A stretch of 64,000 bases of DNA, from NCBI GenBank assembly GCA_965225945.1, contig CBDDBZ010000039.1, forward strand, positions 512,001 through 576,000, written 5' to 3'. Every line of letters begins with the position of its first letter. Position 1 is the stretch's first letter. The DNA comes from Alphaproteobacteria bacterium. Lineage in GTDB: Bacteria > Pseudomonadota > Alphaproteobacteria > GCA-2731375. The position numbers were made by a program, and so were the translations under genes. The notes under the pieces are model-generated. The model was not told where the DNA came from. It saw only the letters and a program-made list of their open reading frames with translations, and searched no databases. This document shows, piece by piece, positions 55,209 through 64,000 of the stretch.

Positions 55209-57011
55209 TCAGACCAGCGCCAAGCCGTCGTCGGTGACCCCCGGTTGGCTTCCCGCGGGGTCGCTCGCCAGGATCATTTCGTTGTGCGGGGCGCCGGAGG
55301 GCACCATCGGCAGGCAGTTCTCCTCCTTCTCCACCAGGATGTCGGCGATCACCGGCTGATCGGATTCGATCATTTGCCGGATCACGTCGTCCAGTTCGTC
55401 CACCGCTGTCGCCCGCAGGCCGACGGCGCCGAAGCTCTCCGCCAGCTTGACGAAGTCGGGCAGCGCCGCGACGTAAGTCTCGGCGTAGCGGCCACCGTGC
55501 AGCATTTCTTGCCACTGGCGGACCATGCCCATCCACTGATTGTTCAGGATGAAGATCTTCACCGGAAGCGAATACTGCCGGGCGGTCGACATCTCCTGGA
55601 TGTTCATCAGGATCGAGGCCTCGCCCGCGATGTCGATCACCAGGGCGTCGGGATGCGCCGTCTGCACGCCGATCGCCGCCGGCAGGCCGTAACCCATGGT
55701 GCCGAGGCCGCCCGAGGTCATCCAGTGCCTGGGCTGGTCGAACTTCAGGTACTGCGCCGCCCACATCTGGTGCTGGCCGACCTCGGTGGTGAAGTAGGTC
55801 TCGCGCCCGGCGATCATCTCCTGCAGGCGCTCGATGGCGTATTGTGGCTTGATGGTCGGGCCGTCCTGCTGGTAGGCGAGGCAGTCGCGGGCCCGCCAGC
55901 CCTCGATCTGGCTCCACCAGGCGCCGAGCGCGTCCCAGTCGCTCGAAAGCCCCTCGCTCTCCCACACGCCCAGCATGGCTTCCAGCACCCGGCCGGCGTC
56001 GCCGACGATCGGCAGGTCGACGATGACGTTCTTGTTGATCGAGGAGCGATCGATATCGACGTGGATCTTGGTCGAATTCGGGCTGAAGGCGTCGAGCCGC
56101 CCGGTGATCCGGTCGTCGAAGCGGGCGCCGATGCAGATCATCAGATCGCAGCCATGCATCGCCAAGTTGGCCTCGTAGGTGCCGTGCATGCCGAGCATGC
56201 CCAGAAACTGCGAATCCGAGGCCGGAAAGGCGCCGAGTCCCATCAGCGTGTTGGTGATCGGGAAGCCGGTCCGCTTGACCAGCCGATGCAACAGTCCCGA
56301 GGCGCGATCGCCGGCGTTGATGACGCCGCCGCCGGTATAGAAGAGCGGCCGCTTGGCCTCCGCCATCAGATGAACGGCACGGCGAATTTGCGCCGGATCG
56401 CCCTCGACGCGGGGACTGTACGACTTGTGGCGAACCTCGGTGGGCGCGGAATAGGGGCCTTCGGCGATGCAGACGTCCTTCGGCAGGTCCACGACCACCG
56501 GGCCGGGACGGCCGTTTGTCGCCACGTAGAAGGCCTCATGGATGACGCGAGCCAAGTCCTCGACCCGTTTCACCAGATAATTGTGTTTGGTGCAGGGCCG
56601 GGTGATGCCGACCGTGTCGGCCTCCTGAAAGGCGTCGTTGCCGATCATGTGGGTCGCCACCTGGCCGGTGAGGCAAATCACCGGGATCGAGTCCATCAGC
56701 GCATCGGTGAGCCCGGTGACTGCGTTGGTGGCGCCGGGGCCCGAGGTCACCAGGACCACGCCGGGCTTGCCGGTCGAGCGGGCATAGCCCTCGGCCGCGT
56801 GGACGGCGCCACCTTCCTGGCGGACCAGGACGTGGCGGACCGCATTCTGCTTGAAGAGGGCATCATAGATCGGCAGCACGGCGCCGCCGGGATAGCCGAA
56901 GATGACCTCGACACCTTGGTCGGCCAGCGCCTTCATGACGATTTCGGCGCCGGACAGGCGCTGCTCGGTGCTCTCTTCGCCGCCGTCGGCGGCGCTCTCG
57001 GTCAGGGTCAT
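55209..57011 (-). CDS. ilvB: Acetolactate synthase large subunit
   Basis: FGYPGGAVL, TSGPGATN, SGGLGTMGYG, GEASILMN. Confidence 0.96.
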   Translation of the reverse strand: MTLTESAADGGEESTEQRLSGAEIVMKALADQGVEVIFGYPGGAVLPIYDALFKQNAVRHVLVRQEGGAVHAAEGYARSTGKPGVVLVTSGPGATNAVTGLTDALMDSIPVICLTGQVATHMIGNDAFQEADTVGITRPCTKHNYLVKRVEDLARVIHEAFYVATNGRPGPVVVDLPKDVCIAEGPYSAPTEVRHKSYSPRVEGDPAQIRRAVHLMAEAKRPLFYTGGGVINAGDRASGLLHRLVKRTGFPITNTLMGLGAFPASDSQFLGMLGMHGTYEANLAMHGCDLMICIGARFDDRITGRLDAFSPNSTKIHVDIDRSSINKNVIVDLPIVGDAGRVLEAMLGVWESEGLSSDWDALGAWWSQIEGWRARDCLAYQQDGPTIKPQYAIERLQEMIAGRETYFTTEVGQHQMWAAQYLKFDQPRHWMTSGGLGTMGYGLPAAIGVQTAHPDALVIDIAGEASILMNIQEMSTARQYSLPVKIFILNNQWMGMVRQWQEMLHGGRYAETYVAALPDFVKLAESFGAVGLRATAVDELDDVIRQMIESDQPVIADILVEKEENCLPMVPSGAPHNEMILASDPAGSQPGVTDDGLALV

Positions 57012-57202
57012 CGCGCCCACTCCTCGCCCCCCGCGGCGCCGCCGTCTCCGCTCCTCGCGTCCGGCGCCTCGGGGATTGCGTCATGCCCAAATATTTTCGG
57101 GCCCACGAACCAAAGCGCCCGCGTCGCGGCCCTCTTGCCCCTCGACCCTAAGGCCTCGGCGACAGCGGCGCGCGCGCGGACGAACGGCGCGAACATAGCC
57201 AG

Positions 57203-58141
57203 TCACTCTGGAGGGGTCAACAAAAATCGACTCACAATCGGAAAGATTTTATCGAAAAAACATTCTGAATCTTGCGTCAATACATGATTCCACGAACGCA
57301 TCTTGTTTCTCTGCCAGGTGAGCTGACGCTTGGCGTAGCGCCGGCTGGCCTGCTCGGCGGCCCGGGTCGCCTCCTCGAGCGAGACCTCGCCGGCGACGTG
57401 GCGCATCAGCTCGCGCAGGCCCACCGCCTTCATCGCCGGCAGGTCCGGCGCCAAGGCCAGGTCGCGGATGGCCCCGACCTCCGCCATCGCGCCCGCCGCC
57501 AGCATGGCGTCGAGGCGCGCCTCGATCCGCGCGTAAAGCGACGCGCGCGGCAGCTCCAGCGCTAGCCCGAGCCAGGGGTGGGCGAGCCCGGGCGCGGTTT
57601 GGCGCCGCCAGTCGGATAGCGGCCGGCCCGTCGCCGCCAGCACCTCCAGCGCCCGGACCAGGCGTTGGGAATCGCTCGGCGGCACTCGCGCCGCCGTCTC
57701 GGGGTCGGCGCGGGCGAGCTCGGCGTGGAGCGCCGCCGCCCCCTCCGCCGCCAACCGCGCCCGCGTTGCCGCGCTAATCTCGCTCGCAACGTCGGGGATC
57801 TCCGCCAGCCCCTCGGTCAGGGCGTGGAAATAGAGTCCGCTGCCGCCGACCAGGATCGCCACCCGCCCGGCGGCCGACGCCGCCTCGATCGCCGTGACGG
57901 CGGCGCGGCACCAGCGCCCGGCCGAGCCCCCCTCCGCCGCCGGCCAGATGCCGTAGAGCCGATGTGGCGCCAGCGCCTCTTCGGCCGGGCTCGGCCGCGC
58001 GGTGACGATCCGCAGTTCGCGATAGACCTGCATGCTGTCGGCGTTGATGATCTCGCCGTCGAGCGCGCGGGCGAGGCGGAGCGCCAGCGCCGACTTGCCG
58101 CAAGCCGTCGGGCCGGCTATCAGGATCAGGCGTCGGTCCAT
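57203..58141 (-). CDS. miaA: tRNA dimethylallyltransferase
   Basis: AGPTACGKS, NADSMQVY, VGGSGLY, RRYAKRQLTW. Confidence 0.95.
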   Translation of the reverse strand: MDRRLILIAGPTACGKSALALRLARALDGEIINADSMQVYRELRIVTARPSPAEEALAPHRLYGIWPAAEGGSAGRWCRAAVTAIEAASAAGRVAILVGGSGLYFHALTEGLAEIPDVASEISAATRARLAAEGAAALHAELARADPETAARVPPSDSQRLVRALEVLAATGRPLSDWRRQTAPGLAHPWLGLALELPRASLYARIEARLDAMLAAGAMAEVGAIRDLALAPDLPAMKAVGLRELMRHVAGEVSLEEATRAAEQASRRYAKRQLTWQRNKMRSWNHVLTQDSECFFDKIFPIVSRFLLTPPE

Positions 58142-58219
58142 GGTCTCGGCCACCCTCGGCTCGCCCGGGCGGTCCGGCCTCGGCCGCGCGCCACCGTCGA
58201 GAGCCGCCGGGTGCCTGCG

Positions 58220-59095
58220 ATGAAACACGTCCTGACCCTGATCGGCAAGCCGCTCGACGCGGCCGTGGTCGCCCGCGCGGCGGCGCTCGCCGAAGCCCGC
58301 CGGGCGCCCGAGTGGCTGGCGCCCGGGCGGGCCTGCGACCTGGCGCTCGACGGGCCGCCGCCGGGCGAACTCGAGGCCCGCTTGCGGGCGAGCCTGGCCG
58401 GCGCGGCGATCGATATCGCCCTGCAGCCGGCGGCGGGCCGGCGGCGGGCGCTCCTGATCGCCGACATGGATTCCACCTTCATCACCGTCGAGTGCATCGA
58501 CGAGATGGCGGCGGCCTTCGGCCTCGGCGCGGAGATCGCCCGAATCACGCGCCGCGCGATGCGGGGCGAGTTGGACTTTCCCTCGGCCCTGCGCGAGCGG
58601 GTGGCGATGCTCCGGGGCTTCGCCGTCGCCGATCTGGAACGGGTCTGGCGGGAGCGGGTGAGTTTGACGGCGGGCGGGCGGGTGCTGGTCCGGACCATGC
58701 GCGCGCATGGTGCCTATACGGCGCTGGTCTCCGGCGGCTTCGACGTCTTCACCTCGCGGGTTCGCGCGGCGATCGGTTTCGACTTCGATCTCGCCAACCG
58801 TTTGGCGGTGGACGACGGTCGGCTGACGGGGGAGCTGGTGGAGCCGGTCCTGGACGCCGACGCCAAGCGGGCCACGCTGGCGCGACTGCTGAGCGAACGG
58901 GGGCTCGGGGCCGCCGACGCGCTGGCGGTGGGCGACGGCGCCAACGACAGGGCGATGATCCAGGCGGCGGGCCTCGGCGTCGCCTACCGCGCCAAGCCCG
59001 TGCTGGCCGAGGTGGCCGACGTTCGCGTCGAATTTGGCGATCTCTCGACGCTGCTCTTCATTCAAGGCTACCGCGAGACGGACTTCGTGGTTTGA
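58220..59095 (+). CDS. serB: Phosphoserine phosphatase
   Basis: ADMDST, ECIDE, VSGGF, VGDGAND. Confidence 0.95.
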   Translation: MKHVLTLIGKPLDAAVVARAAALAEARRAPEWLAPGRACDLALDGPPPGELEARLRASLAGAAIDIALQPAAGRRRALLIADMDSTFITVECIDEMAAAFGLGAEIARITRRAMRGELDFPSALRERVAMLRGFAVADLERVWRERVSLTAGGRVLVRTMRAHGAYTALVSGGFDVFTSRVRAAIGFDFDLANRLAVDDGRLTGELVEPVLDADAKRATLARLLSERGLGAADALAVGDGANDRAMIQAAGLGVAYRAKPVLAEVADVRVEFGDLSTLLFIQGYRETDFVV

Positions 59096-59130: not shown

Positions 59131-60612
59131 TCAGCCTTTGTCCAGGCGGACGGCGATGAAGCGCAAGTCGCCGCCACGCTCCAGCAGCAGCAGGACCGAC
59201 TTTCGCTTCGACTTCTTGACCTTGGTGACCTTGCGCAGCACCTCGCCGGGGGTGCCGACTTCCTCCTGCGCCACCTCGACGATCAGGTCGCCCTCGCGGA
59301 TGCCCTTCTCGGCCGCCGCGCCGTCGGGGTCGACCTCGGTGACGACGACGCCGCGAGCGTCGTCGCTAAGGCTGTATTTCTTGCGTCGCTCGTCGGTGAT
59401 GGTCGAGAGCGTCATGCCGATGGTTTCGACCGTTTCGGAAAATACCGGACCCTTTGGTTCGGACGAGGCGACGGTGGTTTTCTCCGCCGCTTCCAGCTCG
59501 CCGATCGCGACGCTTAGCTCGACCTCGGCGTTCTTCCGCCAGACCTCGACCTTGACCTTCTTGCCGATCCGGGTTTCGGCGACGATGCGCGGCAGCTCGC
59601 GCATCTCGGTGACCGCCTTGTCGTCGAAGGTCAGGATCACGTCGCCTTGTTGCATGCCGGCGGCCTCCGCCGGGCCGCCCTCGCTGACGCCGGCGACGAG
59701 CGCGCCCGTGGCCTCTTCCAGGCCCAGGCTTTCGGCGATCTCGTCGGTCACCGTCTGAATGCGGACGCCGAGCCAGCCGCGCCGGGTGCGGCCGAACTCC
59801 GAAAGCTGCTCGATGACGTTCTTGGCCAGCGCGGCGGGAATGGCGAAGCCGATGCCGACGCTGCCGCCCGAGGGCGAGAAAATCGCCGTGTTGATGCCGA
59901 TCACGCGGCCGTCCATGTTGAACAGCGGGCCGCCCGAATTGCCCCGGTTGATCGAGGCGTCGGTCTGGATGAAGTCGTCGTAGGGACCGGCGTTGATGTC
60001 GCGGCCCCGGGCCGAAATGATGCCGGCGGTGACGCTGCCGCCGAGGCCGAAGGGATTGCCGATGGCGACCACCCAGTCGCCGACCCGGGCCTCGTCGGAG
60101 CTGCCCCACTGGACCGCCGGCAGCGGCGCCTTCGCCTCCACCTTCAACAGCGCCAAGTCGGTCTTCGAATCCCTGCCGAGAATCTTGGCCGGCAGCCTCT
60201 CACCGTCGGAAAAGGTGACCGAGACCTCGTCCGCCTCGGCGATGACGTGATTGTTAGTGACGATCAAGCCATCCTTGTCGATGACGAAGCCGGAGCCGAG
60301 CGAGGTCACCCGGCGGGGCCTGTTCTGCTGGTTGCCGGGGGGACGGTTGCGCTCGAAGAATTCCTTGAAGAACTCCTCGAAGGGGGAGCCGGGGGGAAAC
60401 TGGAAGCCGGGCTGGCCCTGGTTGCCCTCGATCTTCTGGGTGGTCGAGATGTTGACGACGCTGGGCGACAGCTCGGCGGCGAGGTCGGCGAAACTTTCGG
60501 GCACCCCGCGCGCCCACGCCGGCGTCGCCAGCGCCACGGCCGTCGCCATGGCCACCACCGCCGCCGCCACGCGGGGCGCCGCAAAGGTCCTCGCCGGCGT
60601 CTCGGCCGGCAT
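59131..60612 (-). CDS. degP: DegP/DegQ (Do) serine endoprotease
   Basis: GSGF, TNNHV, TDLAL, NRGNSGGPL, two PDZ domains; start approximate. Confidence 0.93.
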   Translation of the reverse strand: MPAETPARTFAAPRVAAAVVAMATAVALATPAWARGVPESFADLAAELSPSVVNISTTQKIEGNQGQPGFQFPPGSPFEEFFKEFFERNRPPGNQQNRPRRVTSLGSGFVIDKDGLIVTNNHVIAEADEVSVTFSDGERLPAKILGRDSKTDLALLKVEAKAPLPAVQWGSSDEARVGDWVVAIGNPFGLGGSVTAGIISARGRDINAGPYDDFIQTDASINRGNSGGPLFNMDGRVIGINTAIFSPSGGSVGIGFAIPAALAKNVIEQLSEFGRTRRGWLGVRIQTVTDEIAESLGLEEATGALVAGVSEGGPAEAAGMQQGDVILTFDDKAVTEMRELPRIVAETRIGKKVKVEVWRKNAEVELSVAIGELEAAEKTTVASSEPKGPVFSETVETIGMTLSTITDERRKKYSLSDDARGVVVTEVDPDGAAAEKGIREGDLIVEVAQEEVGTPGEVLRKVTKVKKSKRKSVLLLLERGGDLRFIAVRLDKG

Positions 60613-60890
60613 ATCCTGCAGAATCGCGTAAATCCCTGACACGCGCCTTCTCCTTGGCTGTAGGGCGGCATCCCCGGACGGAGACCGGCCTCGAATTGTC
60701 GGACAATTAAGCCCCACGACGCATCCTTGCAAGTTCCGTGGGCCCAGCCGCAACTGGGAAGCGATTGCGGCCATTCTATGGCCAAATCGGGGAAAAGTCC
60801 GGCCCCGCGGCCGCAGCGCTGGCGGGTCGCCCTATTCCCGACGCTCGCCGGCGGAAAATGGCCGGCGGAATAATGGCGGGGGGAATAAGG

Positions 60891-60976: not shown

Positions 60977-62107
60977 CTACATCCGGTACTCGTCCGGGAT
61001 CAGCATCAGGCTGTCCTGATCCTCGGCCACGGCGGCGTGACAGTCGATGCAGAACTGCATCTTGGCGCTGTTCTCGCCTTTGGTGACGCCGAAAACGGCG
61101 CCGTCCGGCATCACCATGGTGTAGCGCCAGTTGCCGCTCGCCTTGTTGAAGCCGGCGGGCATCTTTTCCATCACAAACAGCGGGCCCGCCGCCATCTTGC
61201 CGTTGCCATGGACGGCGAAGCTGTCCTTGGCCAGGATCGAGCCGACGGGCATCTGCCCGACCTCCTCGAACTTGCCGTAAGCCTTGCCGGTCGCATTCGC
61301 GTAGTTGTTGACCAAGCGGCCACCATGGGTATCGGAGACGTAGGGCTGTTTGTTGTAGATGTCCCAGTTCTTGTAAAAGCTGGCGATCTTCAGCCCCGAC
61401 TTGGCGTAACCCGCCACCATCTCCTTCAACAGACACTCGTAGGCGCCCTTGGCCTCGGCCGTGGTCAGCTTCGGCGCGGCGCCGCCGCCGCAGGGGCCGC
61501 ACGGGCTGCAGGCGCCGCAAGCCTTCTTGGCGGCGCAGGGGTTGCACGCGCCGCAGGCCTTCTTGGCGGCGCACGGGTTGCAGGCACCGCAAGCCTTCTT
61601 GGCGGCGCAGGGGTTGCAGGCACCGCAGGCCTTCTTGGCGGCGCAGGGGTTGCACGCGCCGCAGGCTTTCTTGGCGGCGCAAGGGTTGCAGGCCGACGCC
61701 GTCACCAGGCGCGGGATCACGCACTTGCTGGAATAGCTGGCGGCACCACCGCCGCAGGGGTTGCACGGGTTGCACGCCCCACAGGCCTTTTTCGCCGCGC
61801 AAGGATTGCACGCACCGCAGGCCTTCTTGGCGGCGCAGGGGTTGCACGCGCCGCAGGCCTTTTTGGCCGCGCATGGATTGCAGGCGCCACAGGTCTTTTT
61901 CGCGGCGCAAGGGTTGCAGGCCTTGCAGGCCGCCACCCGGATCGCGCCGTCGGCGGGTTTCACGAGCGCCGCCGGATTGGCGAGACCGTCCGCGCCGCCC
62001 CGGGCGAACGTGGCATCGGCGAGCGCGATGGCGCTGGCGGCGACGCCGGCGCCGACGAACAGCTGGATCATCGTGCTCGAAAGCAGATTGGCTTTATGCG
62101 ATTTCAC
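60977..62107 (-). CDS. Exported Cys-repeat protein fused to a cytochrome P460-like domain
   Basis: Signal-like N-terminus; CGACNPCAAKKA repeats; C-terminal THGGR..NNYAN, MPVGSILAKDSF, LFVMEKM, GNWRY, CIDCH; GTG start after GGAGG. Confidence 0.85.
   Translation of the reverse strand: MKSHKANLLSSTMIQLFVGAGVAASAIALADATFARGGADGLANPAALVKPADGAIRVAACKACNPCAAKKTCGACNPCAAKKACGACNPCAAKKACGACNPCAAKKACGACNPCNPCGGGAASYSSKCVIPRLVTASACNPCAAKKACGACNPCAAKKACGACNPCAAKKACGACNPCAAKKACGACNPCAAKKACGACSPCGPCGGGAAPKLTTAEAKGAYECLLKEMVAGYAKSGLKIASFYKNWDIYNKQPYVSDTHGGRLVNNYANATGKAYGKFEEVGQMPVGSILAKDSFAVHGNGKMAAGPLFVMEKMPAGFNKASGNWRYTMVMPDGAVFGVTKGENSAKMQFCIDCHAAVAEDQDSLMLIPDEYRM
61488..61927 (-). repeat. Two blocks of 36-bp coding tandem repeats
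   Basis: 4 + 5 NPCAAKK units, each block closed by C..C.PC.PCGGG; variation mostly at third codon positions of the minus frame. Confidence 0.93.
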
Positions 62108-62285
62108 GACCCGGGCCTCCTGGATGTTACCTCAGCCTCCCTGGGCGGTGGTGCCGACGCTCCCGATCGGTCGCGCATCACCTCCCTTGAGGGGCGGATA
62201 CTAGCGAGGCCGACTCGTCACGCCTCATAAACACTGTGTGATGCTGCGCCGCAGCAAAATGGCTTCGGCACAAGCGGGAATCGAA

Positions 62286-62316
62286 ACGCCGCCGTCGGCT
62301 AAGCCGGCGGCGGCGT
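62286..62316 (-). terminator. Hairpin between the two Cys-repeat genes
   Basis: ACGCCGCCGTCGGC-TAA-GCCGGCGGCGGCGT, followed by TTCGATT on the minus strand. Confidence 0.55.
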
Positions 62317-62336
62317 CTTCGACGATCGCGCGCGCG

Positions 62337-62651
62337 CTATTTCTTCTTCTTGGCGGCGCAGGGATTGCACGCCCCGCAAGCCTTTTTGGCGGCGCAGGGA
62401 TTGCACGCGCCACAAGCCTTTTTCGCGGCGCAAGGGTTGCACGCGCCGCATTTCTTCTTGGCGGCGCAGGGGTTGCAGGCCTTGCAGGCCGCGACCTGGA
62501 TATAGCCGGTCGCCTTGCTCGCGGCCGCCGGATTGCTCAGCCCGTCGTTGCTCGCCGCGCCGGCATGGCCGATGGCGCCGAGCGCGAGCGTGGCGCCGAG
62601 CACGAGCGGCATGAAGGTGCTGGAAAGAAGTTTGGACTTGTGGGAACTCAT
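62337..62651 (-). CDS. Small exported Cys/Lys-rich repeat protein (104 aa)
   Basis: AGGAGGT SD; MSSHKSKLLSST leader; four C.ACNPCAAKK units, 12 Cys. Confidence 0.85.
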   Translation of the reverse strand: MSSHKSKLLSSTFMPLVLGATLALGAIGHAGAASNDGLSNPAAASKATGYIQVAACKACNPCAAKKKCGACNPCAAKKACGACNPCAAKKACGACNPCAAKKKK

Positions 62652-62887
62652 GGATCGACCTCCTGTTAGTGGCAACGGCACCTCCGGTCGCCTCGGCCGC
62701 GCCCTCGCGCCACCGCCTTCCTCGAGCCGTTGCCTTTTCCCGCCGCGCCGACGACCATCGCCAGCGCGCGCCGGTTAGATGAGGCATTCTATGCGGCGAT
62801 CCACGTCACGAATTGTAAAGAATCTGTGATGACGCGACGCGCCTCGACGGTGGCGTTCCTATAACTAGGGCGCGAGGGAGGCGAGAG

Positions 62888-63730
62888 ATGACGATCGGCC
62901 GCATGAGCTTGGCGATCCTGCTGCTGCTGGCGGCGAATTTGGCGCGGGCCGGTATCGTGGCGCCGGAGAGCGTGGGGGTGCCCGCCGGCGCATTCGTCCA
63001 AGGCTCCGACCGGGCCGAGCGGGAGGCCGCCTACCGATTGGACGAGCGCGCCTACGGTCACGACCTCACCCGGCGCGACAAATGGTACGAGGACGAGCCC
63101 CGCCGACGCCTGGAGCTGCCGGCCTTCCGGATCACCAAGACGGCGATCACCAACTGTCAATACGGCCAATTCCTGGCCGCGAACGACCGTGCCGCCCCCG
63201 ACGTCAGGCGCGACGTCTGGAAGAGTTACGGGCTGATCCATCCCTATTCCCGGACCCGCCGCCATGCCTGGCGCGACGGCGCGCCGCCGCCGGGACGCGA
63301 GGACCACCCCGTGGTCCTGGTGAACCACGCCGACGTCCGGGCCTACGCGGCCTGGCTGTCGGAGACGACGGGCGTCACCTGGCGGTTGCCGAGCGAGGCG
63401 GAGTGGGAAAAGGCGGCCCGCGGCAGCGCCGGGCGCCGCTATCCGTGGGGCGACGCGTTCGAGGCGGGGCGCCTGAACAGCCACGACGCGGGGCCGTTCG
63501 ATACCATGGCCGTCGGCCGCTTTCCCGACGGCGCCAGCCCCTTTGGCCTGCTGGACGCCGCCGGACAGGTCTTCGAATGGACGGCGACGACGGCCGGCGC
63601 CGGGCGCCATATCGTCAAGGGCGGCTCGTGGGACGACAAGGGCTGCGGGGTCTGCCGTCCGGCGGCGCGCCATTCCAGACCCGATTTTCTCAAGCACATC
63701 CTGGTCGGCTTCCGGCTGGTGCGGCAATGA
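62888..63730 (+). CDS. Exported formylglycine-generating enzyme (SUMF1/FGE-sulfatase) family protein
   Basis: Signal peptide, GAFVQGS, HPVVLV, RLPSEAEWEKAARG, YPWG, GQVFEW, KGGSW, GFR. Confidence 0.92.
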   Translation: MTIGRMSLAILLLLAANLARAGIVAPESVGVPAGAFVQGSDRAEREAAYRLDERAYGHDLTRRDKWYEDEPRRRLELPAFRITKTAITNCQYGQFLAANDRAAPDVRRDVWKSYGLIHPYSRTRRHAWRDGAPPPGREDHPVVLVNHADVRAYAAWLSETTGVTWRLPSEAEWEKAARGSAGRRYPWGDAFEAGRLNSHDAGPFDTMAVGRFPDGASPFGLLDAAGQVFEWTATTAGAGRHIVKGGSWDDKGCGVCRPAARHSRPDFLKHILVGFRLVRQ

Positions 63731-63809
63731 TGCTAGAGAGGGCGAGGCGCGGACGTCTCGGGGGGTCTTTCAATCTCCTCGAAACGGCGAATGATCGGGA
63801 GCCATCGCG

Positions 63810-64000
63810 ATGGCGCTGTTCGACGAACTCGAGACCGAACGCATCGAGGAGATGCTGCAGGCGGGAGCTGAGATCGAGGAATGCTACCGGGTGCTGCGCA
63901 AGGTCGACGCCAACATCGTCGGCGAGATTCTGAAAGGCCACGGCACCTTCTACGAATGGGATCACTACCCGCCGGGGGACGTCTTCGACGACGAGACCCA
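63810..64000 (+). CDS. Hypothetical protein, truncated by the window edge (recalls DUF6969)
   Basis: MALFDELETERIEEMLQAGAEIEECYRVLRKVDANIVGEILKGHGTFYEWDHYPPGDVFDDET; family call from memory of the HYPPGDV.D motif only. Confidence 0.6.
   Translation, partial: MALFDELETERIEEMLQAGAEIEECYRVLRKVDANIVGEILKGHGTFYEWDHYPPGDVFDDET

Follow-up and report, generated by a model that had tools for sequence, protein, structure and literature searches.

What does an exported protein that strings dozens of cysteines in front of a P460-type haem do for its host, and which of the genes around it share in the task? This question is raised by positions 60,977 to 64,000 of a 64,000-nucleotide stretch of alphaproteobacterial DNA (GenBank assembly GCA_965225945.1, contig CBDDBZ010000039.1, positions 512,001 to 576,000 of the forward strand), the whole of which is referred to here as the window. 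The segment holds two genes for proteins with Asn-Pro-Cys repeats, one of them fused to a haem domain, and, divergent from them, a gene of the FGE-sulfatase fold followed by a gene of the DUF6969 family. Our data from homologous loci and genomes revealed a real and conserved module, widespread in marine Alphaproteobacteria and built round an exported, lysine-flanked Asn-Pro-Cys arm. The literature searched contained neither a description of an architecture combining the poly-cysteine arm, P460, FGE-like and DUF6969 components nor a characterised family with this architecture.

Anatomy of the arm genes and the haem domain

The fusion gene (60977..62107, minus strand), recognised from its open reading frame and a Pfam P460 match, encodes an exported protein of 376 residues with 38 cysteines: 35 in the arm (residues 60-210), one at C225 and two in the CIDCH motif (residues 353-357). 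Its leader (residues 1-59; 61931..62107) consists of a Sec-type signal peptide, judged by eye, and a short conserved spacer, GL.NPAA ... I.VAA. The arm follows in two blocks, the first (residues 60-118; 61754..61930) composed of CGACNPCAAKKA units with a terminal CNPCNPCGGG and the second covering residues 140-210 (61478..61690), with a linker between them (residues 119-139; 61691..61753) that bears the conserved K-C129-V-I-P-R-L, a motif of most fusion proteins. The two blocks hold 10 CNPC and 9 NPCAAKK units, and the protein is completed by the haem domain (residues 211-376; 60980..61477); all of these parts are read from the minus strand. The free gene on the same strand (62337..62651) encodes a 104-residue protein made of a leader, which aligns with that of the fusion across about 58 residues, and four CNPCAAKK units with 12 cysteines, and it ends directly after the repeats. 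An AGGAGG lies 8 nucleotides ahead of the GTG start of the fusion gene and another 7-8 nucleotides ahead of the ATG start of the free gene. The initial annotation, made from the sequence alone, had described a co-oriented pair of Cys-repeat paralogs with a common leader, about 35 cysteines in two blocks before a P460-like domain with CIDCH, a cassette produced by itself and also as an appendage of a haem domain, and divergent FGE-family and hypothetical genes. All of these parts proved to be in place, and Pfam models for P460, FGE-sulfatase and DUF6969 were matched, the last of them identifying the hypothetical gene.

Tandem Repeats Finder reported two 36-nucleotide arrays, one of 11.4 copies at 61498-61921 with 71% matches and one of 3.8 copies at 62346-62481 with 85% matches, and this level of matching marks the arm repeats as old and not as a fresh expansion. 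In the arm alignment CNPCAA is invariant, and Asn-Pro is kept as strongly as Cys. Since certain arms have a single cysteine per NPCAAK unit (loci L094 and L108), what the repeat conserves at its core is N-P-C-A-A rather than CxxC. In three public runs, two of which are RNA libraries, contigs connect 61584 with 62416 and omit 831 bases that lie between the two genes' repeat arrays; this junction is probably a repeat-driven assembly collapse, the alternative being a real recombined allele.

The haem domain has a P460/c'-beta fold. Its match to the Pfam Cytochrome_P460 model (PF16694) was a marginal pass (29.8 bits over residues 245-363, the cut-off being 27). From 74 sequences, AlphaFold gave a model with a predicted local distance difference test score (pLDDT) of 94.4, and all top 13 Foldseek hits to this model at E <= 0.001 were P460 or c'-beta structures, the best being the M. 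capsulatus P460 entries 9hrk and 6hiu (E 1e-6; TM 0.59/0.66). The haem-binding motif (CIDCH at 61037-61051; C143, C146 and H147 of CXXCH in the numbering of our alignment A3) is invariant in 74/74 rows. The family profile aligned best to the c'-beta proteins 7s5o and 7ead, and an invariant lysine (K84 of A3, K294 of the window protein, 61226-61228) was thereby placed on Met79 of 7s5o, whose numbering was cross-checked at a second residue, Ala109, and on Phe61 of 7ead. In the portion of a 2025 review used here, Table 2 lists these two residues as substitutes for the P460 cross-linking lysine (PMC11928373), for which Lys70 of NeP460, Lys78 of McP460 and Lys106 of NsP460 served as our points of comparison. 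Because K294 aligns to Met79 and Phe61, the family has an invariant lysine at the position where P460s form their haem-lysine bond; the covalent bond itself is a prediction.

With a true P460 haem, the module could be a handler of nitrogen oxides: NO or hydroxylamine would be bound at the haem, and the thiol arms would either capture the product, for instance by S-nitrosothiol formation, or shield the haem. The fold and the lysine at the cross-link position are consistent with this, as is the activity of family members on NH2OH and NO (PMC11928373, same portion). The distal carboxylate (Glu96 or Asp102) that serves NH2OH oxidation gives a divided answer: the 7ead alignment puts a nearly invariant Glu (E104 of A3) at this position, and the 7s5o alignment puts Gly109 there. 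Moreover, none of the nitrification or denitrification genes was seen in the loci described below, and arms are also attached to non-P460 domains. We regard a role in nitrogen-oxide handling as quite improbable.

The arm seems to be tied into the haem domain by a second pair of cysteines. Cys225 in helix 1 (61433-61435) is invariant in 74/74 arm-bearing sequences. Among arm-less homologs, all eight with a helix-1 cysteine also have one in a short N-terminal segment, which in one of them reads C-V-V-P-R-L, and all 13 without the helix-1 cysteine also lack an upstream one. This covariation suggests a C129-C225 disulfide, with arm block 2 inserted inside the closed loop. The linker motif, written as C-x-[VI]-P-[RS]-[LM], is present in 64/79 fusion proteins. 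Its form C-x-[VI]-P-R-L was considered as an FGE-specific target signal and rejected: it occurs in 33/36 loci with the FGE-like gene and in 31/43 without it.

Several observations concern other members of the haem-domain family. The source genome encodes a second, arm-less homolog (contig C36 of G000; L095:4806-5525, plus strand) with 42% identity, which has the CXXCH cysteines only and no helix-1 cysteine. Two further homologs (L134, L135) read C-x-x-C-A in place of CXXCH, without its histidine, and have long Pro/Leu/Asp-rich repeats (PLAPLDP...) at the C-terminus; possibly they are derivatives without a haem. One fusion homolog (P0020) carries the Pfam accession PF27959.1, and a recent Pfam release may thus already have a model for part of this protein.

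Conserved partners across loci and genomes

To what extent the arm genes and their neighbours travel together was evident from two samples. The fusion search gave at least 954 homologs among 8000 candidates scored, and the family was confirmed at 403 places in species-representative genomes, mostly of marine Alphaproteobacteria (Kiloniellaceae, Rhodospirillales, Sneathiellales, Hyphomicrobiales); Aestuariispira insulae CECT 8488 (L048) is a cultured carrier. Eighty related loci were retained for neighbourhood counts. The FGE-like gene is present in 36 of them, DUF6969 in 39 and both in 32, never farther than about 4.3 kb from the haem domain. The free short paralog occurs in 22 loci, every one of which (22/22) also has one or both of these partners. 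At least three gene orders were counted: the divergent order of the window (about 12 loci); an FGE-like gene divergent from a series of fusion, short and DUF6969 genes (about 10 loci); and a co-oriented series of DUF6969, FGE-like, short and fusion genes (9 loci). Three further loci have DUF6969 adjoining the fusion gene and no FGE-like gene. A second class of loci consists of tandem haem-domain genes beside Rrf2-SufBCD, without the FGE-like gene or DUF6969; Rrf2 together with SufB/SufC was seen in six loci (L013, L015, L025, L027, L035, L079).

The second sample comprised 301 genomes of the class, sampled evenly; related genomes are not independent, and the counts describe a pattern, with no statistical test. 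Searching them with the short protein found only 16 and missed many fusions, and because of this insensitive query a degenerate CNPC...CNPC DNA pattern was adopted for the count. The pattern was found in 28/301 genomes and its reversed control in 0/301, which, together with the at least 954 homologs, shows that the Cys-repeat family is not a product of chance. DUF6969 was found in 67/301 genomes (a count that includes the unpublished genome G240) and in 27 of the 28 CNPC-positive ones, the exception being a 79% complete genome; DUF6969 lies less than 5 kb from an arm gene in 18 or more of the 27 that have both. The haem domain is present in 43/301 genomes, 36 of them DUF6969-positive, and the FGE-like ortholog in 26/301, of which 25 have DUF6969 and 22 the haem domain. 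The haem-domain copies fetched from DUF6969-negative genomes were repeat-free, indicating that DUF6969 follows the arms, not the haem. The Cys-repeat, FGE-like and DUF6969 genes thus form a recurrent module, and the linkage that the initial annotation had left to be checked across genomes was borne out in both samples.

Synteny of this kind could also arise without any joint function, if the arms were flexible spacers or surface tethers and their neighbours had stayed in place through shared ancestry only. The loci with neither partner gene (37/80) and the wider spread of DUF6969 relative to the arms would fit such an explanation. It does not sit well with a proximity that survives at least three rearranged gene orders in several orders of Alphaproteobacteria, with the presence of DUF6969 in 27/28 repeat-bearing genomes versus 67/301 overall, or with the invariance of CNPCAA, and we consider it very improbable.

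The FGE-like gene (62888..63730, plus strand) encodes a 280-residue protein that matches the FGE-sulfatase model PF03781 over its full length (9e-43) and has a signal peptide, judged by eye. It reached no cut-off among the NCBIfam equivalogs, which include GldK/PorK, PvdO, EgtB, SenA and OvoA; its nearest scores were 56 versus 350 bits for GldK, 54 versus 500 for PvdO and 50 versus 360 for EgtB. Its closest PDB relatives, ToxD and CalU17, ranked above true FGEs. The conserved C-terminal segment GGSWDD.GCG.CRPAARH contains a cysteine pair of CxxC spacing after GGS[WF] (GCG.CRPAARH) that is present in 75% or more of the 36 rows aligned. According to the portion of PMC6676471 used here, T. curvata FGE binds Cu(I) through Cys269 and Cys274 (CxxxxC), and the FGE substrate motif has Pro3 and Arg5 as its conserved residues. 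A 705-residue frame of the FGE-like gene in L115 was dismissed as a spurious N-terminal extension.

An exported FGE-like gene that is conserved next to arm genes invites the explanation that the two are enzyme and substrate: the FGE-like protein would oxidise the C-x-P cysteines of the arms to thioaldehyde or formylglycine, and the aldehydes would cross-link the flanking lysines or act as a new cofactor. The arms read C-N-P-C-A, with proline at +2 as in the FGE motif (PMC6676471, same portion). A search of the source genome for a second FGE paralog found none, and the two sulfatase-family genes of this genome lie 400-500 kb away and lack signal peptides. Arginine at +4 is missing from the arms, however, the CxxC spacing differs from the CxxxxC of the tcFGE pair, and the family assignment ends with ToxD and CalU17 rather than with an FGE equivalog. 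Arm genes also occur without the FGE-like gene, whose ortholog (26/301 genomes) overlaps only partially with the CNPC pattern (28) and the haem domain (43). An enzyme-substrate pair of this type therefore appears improbable to us. The suggestion of the initial annotation that the FGE-like protein modifies or metal-loads the arms is left unsupported.

The DUF6969 gene begins at 63810 on the plus strand, and its first 63 codons lie in the window (63810..64000); the open frame (63810-63998) continues past the window end and the complete gene, for a protein of 235 residues, ends at window-equivalent position 64517. The full-length protein (continuation L002:3811-4518) scored 279 bits and 2.1e-83 against PF22308 over profile positions 2-201 of 201, and the fragment 4e-13. 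The family comprises 1241 cluster representatives and has an invariant His/Glu/Asp cluster. Its structure model (pLDDT 91) found nothing in the PDB at E <= 0.001 with Foldseek; VIA-align gave a best Z of 7.7 covering a 58-residue helical hairpin only, the PDB sequence search gave 0 hits, and the ESM Atlas held no usable match. No signal peptide was recognised by eye, and two relatives are composed of DUF6969, a long coiled coil, one membrane helix and a bacterial SH3 domain, in that order. Since DUF6969 lacks a signal peptide and stands N-terminal to the coiled coil, membrane helix and SH3 domain, it is probably cytoplasmic. The suggestion of the initial annotation that this gene loads or modifies the arms in the periplasm is accordingly not supported, as a protein in the cytoplasm could not act there.

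Among the DUF6969 relatives P0147, P0207 and P0139, two are the coiled-coil/membrane-helix/SH3 fusions and one is a tandem DUF6969 duplication. Beside another DUF6969 gene lies a gene for an exported peptide with a different Cys/His-rich repeat, CGGSHAGDCGG (L097:5787-6173, minus strand), which suggests that exported Cys-rich repeats of more than one type have DUF6969 beside them.

The remaining features of the region are less conserved. Directly 3' of the stop codon of the short gene, a GC-rich hairpin followed by T-rich bases was read from the sequence (62280..62320, minus strand) and is a possible terminator or attenuator; a consensus scan did not list it. In the intergenic stretch from which the short Cys-repeat and FGE-like genes diverge (62652..62887), the promoter scan gave no sigma-70 consensus site. 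Just past the window, DUF6969 is followed by an MsrB gene and, farther downstream, by genes for an HtrA-like protease, BKACE, a luciferase-like oxygenase, HAD and a rhodanese. Two HtrA/DegP-type PDZ protease genes flank the module (window 59131-60774, minus strand; continuation L002:5586-7322, plus strand), and they are rarely conserved, the window copy being present in 5/80 loci and the continuation copy in 1/80. BKACE, SerB and MiaA were each found in 0/80 related loci; the flanks of the window do not recur, and BKACE drops out of the downstream genes that had been put forward as partners. By eye only, a 603-residue open reading frame at 55209-57020 (minus strand) resembles the large subunit of acetolactate synthase, and overlapping long open reading frames at 57203-59095 resemble MiaA (minus) and SerB (plus). 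Three supposed genes 3' of DUF6969 (c267, c255, c194) look like wrong-frame shadows, and orf203 of the window continuation is an antisense shadow of MsrB, not a gene.

Public sequencing runs provide a weak hint that the module is expressed. Two metatranscriptome libraries of one study contained near-identical contigs over portions of both Cys-repeat genes, with thinner cover over the FGE-like and DUF6969 genes and parts of the region uncovered; the hint is weak because these are contigs only and DNA carry-over is possible. The DNA runs with this stretch derive from metagenomes of sponges and marine sediment, and from coded organisms.

Possible chemistry of the arm

What the arm might do is best approached from the company it keeps. 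Free short arm proteins are also encoded at other genomic sites, and next to DUF6969 even where a haem fusion is missing (L087, L094, L112, L113, G222). Among the 120 longer homologs of the short protein that were listed, 15 carry PF21342 (SoxA/TsdA cytochrome c) and three carry PF03150 (CCP_MauG haem motif), and in these relatives a mono-haem domain is flanked on both sides by arms. In one case the fusion partner of the arm is a DM13 'electron transfer' domain. In another protein (L114:3215-4165, plus strand), an NPC repeat array lies inside the haem domain itself, between the lysine-bearing strand (VKDSF) and GPLFVMEKM. The poly-cysteine arm is thus a portable module. The L114 locus has two further haem-domain genes and DUF6969 close by.

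We tentatively favour a reading in which the attached redox domain serves the arm, whose many thiols would undergo redox changes or carry sulfur, and we see it as quite possible. It is favoured because the arms are attached specifically to haem and electron-transfer domains, including the SoxA/TsdA type, because the insertion of one repeat array is adjacent to the haem pocket, and because genes for sulfur transport (YeeE-type, 10 loci), cytochrome c (17), DsbA-like proteins (8) and MsrB (6) recur in part of the 80 loci. The exported and redox-flavoured character that the initial annotation had given the module is supported by the same observations, with signal peptides judged by eye. Anatomy, fold, lysine position, gene linkage and arm portability are observed; the chemical steps that follow are all inferred. 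Acting as swinging arms, the arms would present their cysteines to the attached redox domain for oxidation, reduction or loading with sulfur species; this domain would be the haem with a lysine at the P460 cross-link position in the window, and a SoxA/TsdA-type haem or DM13 elsewhere. Electrons would be passed on to a soluble cytochrome c. In the periplasm, the exported FGE-like protein could be a partner that uses its conserved cysteine pair, possibly with copper, to act on arm thiols, and DUF6969, with its invariant His/Glu/Asp cluster, could be a cytoplasmic metalloprotein partner tied to the arms and not to the haem. As a complete scheme, in which a lysine-cross-linked P460 haem loads, oxidises or reduces the poly-thiol arm, a copper-type FGE relative matures or recycles it and the cytoplasmic metalloprotein DUF6969 lends support, the proposal is unlikely to hold in every part.

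The chief competing explanation is that the arms bind metals, as a metallothionein-like periplasmic buffer or chaperone for Cu(I), Zn, Cd or Hg, with the FGE-like protein delivering or withdrawing copper and DUF6969 serving in the cytoplasm as a metal sensor or enzyme. Three cysteines per 12 residues with CxxC spacing would suit a metal ligand, and the arms come close to the zinc-binding CGxCxxC unit of Pfam zf-CXXC (24.0 and 26.4 bits, under the cut-off of 26.5), with weak matches to PDB sequences as well; zf-CXXC aside, the arm has no Pfam match. FGE enzymes bind Cu(I) with two cysteines (PMC6676471, same portion), and the FGE-like protein has a cysteine pair at that segment. The invariant His/Glu cluster of DUF6969 is compatible with a metal, and one DUF6969 locus (L089) adjoins MerR, HMA and NrsF genes. 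Several features speak for another use: copper or zinc resistance genes are not recurrent in the 80 loci, the single-Cys NPCAAK arms would be poor chelators, the arms are found specifically on redox domains (P460, SoxA/TsdA-type cytochrome c, DM13), and Asn-Pro, which a simple thiolate cluster would not need, is conserved like Cys. Metal buffering is possible but, in our view, rather unlikely.

A number of points weigh against the favoured reading of redox or sulfur-carrying arms. The dense Cys/Lys array is equally expected of a metal binder, and P460 haems are known for nitrogen-oxide, not sulfur, chemistry. The source genome (96.6% complete) gave no hit for SoxY (PF13501) or a SoxA/TsdA domain, so that it offers no known sulfur-oxidation pathway for the arms to feed, and the PF21342 matches of the arm-bearing relatives are borderline (25-30 bits versus a cut-off of 27). 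The YeeE, cytochrome c and Suf neighbours, found in a subset of loci only, may reflect shared ancestry. As for the partners, some of the 37 loci with neither gene end at a contig edge and many are fully flanked, and 40/67 DUF6969-positive genomes are without the strict CNPC pattern. In those genomes DUF6969 often adjoins an ordinary cytochrome c2 or DUF2336, and because of this frequent pairing it may have a broader role.

Secreted proteins with dozens of cysteine repeats, free or attached to haem, point to an undescribed extracytoplasmic cysteine chemistry. If the arms carry sulfur or electrons, the module would be an unrecognised periplasmic redox system of abundant marine and sponge- or sediment-associated bacteria; the P460 cofactor would gain a new job, its first outside nitrogen chemistry, and the Asn-Pro-Cys arm would represent a new kind of swinging arm on proteins, periplasmic and comparable to SoxY-like carriers but poly-thiol, with dozens of reactive cysteines. 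If the arms bind metals, they would constitute a new class of periplasmic metallothionein. Either way, three families labelled 'hypothetical', 'FGE family' and 'DUF' acquire a context in which their function can be tested.

Comparison with known systems

Among known systems, the cytochrome P460/c'-beta superfamily (NeP460 2je2/2je3, McP460 6hiu/9hrk, NeCP-beta 7s5o, TtCP-beta 7ead) has the fold, the C-terminal CXXCH and, at the cross-link position, the lysine in common with the window protein, at an identity of merely 15-23%. Unlike these cytochromes, the window protein has a 150-residue arm with 35 cysteines and the extra cysteine pair C129/C225, and its family resides in marine heterotroph-type Alphaproteobacteria next to an FGE-like gene and DUF6969. 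Arm-haem fusions go unmentioned in the portion of the P460 review used here (PMC11928373). With the aerobic copper-dependent FGEs (SUMF1; tcFGE 6s07; scFGE 6muj), the FGE-like protein shares the FGE-sulfatase fold, export and a cysteine pair after GGS[WF], and its likely partner, the arms, is rich in C-x-P as FGE substrates are. It differs from true FGEs in having CxxC instead of CxxxxC, a partner without arginine at +4 and no sulfatase adjoining it.

In thiosulfate oxidation by SoxAX with its SoxYZ carrier and by TsdA, the reaction takes place at His/Cys-ligated c-haems, and sulfur is held on the cysteine of a protein arm. The window system resembles these in presenting cysteines of a flexible arm to a periplasmic c-haem, and the arms of sister proteins are borne by a SoxA/TsdA-type domain; it departs from them in its dozens of cysteines instead of one, its P460-type haem and a genome without a SoxY or SoxA domain. 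Bufferins, exported cysteine-containing RiPPs (peptides of ribosomal synthesis with post-translational modification) made by MNIO enzymes, are likewise small, Cys-rich and exported with a Sec signal, with a candidate modifying-enzyme gene adjacent. The partner in the window is of the FGE fold, whereas DUF692/MNIO or DUF2063 was found neither among the open reading frames scanned at the locus nor among the recurrent neighbours. Haem proteins contain the arms as permanent parts, and the leaders are of an ordinary Sec type, which leaves the earlier suggestion of RiPP precursors unsupported. Finally, metallothioneins, copper storage proteins and the eukaryotic zf-CXXC share with the arms a very high cysteine density and the CGxCxxC spacing, whereas the arms are distinguished from them by export, by a strictly periodic, lysine-flanked NPC unit that in some arms has a single cysteine, and by their fusion to redox domains.

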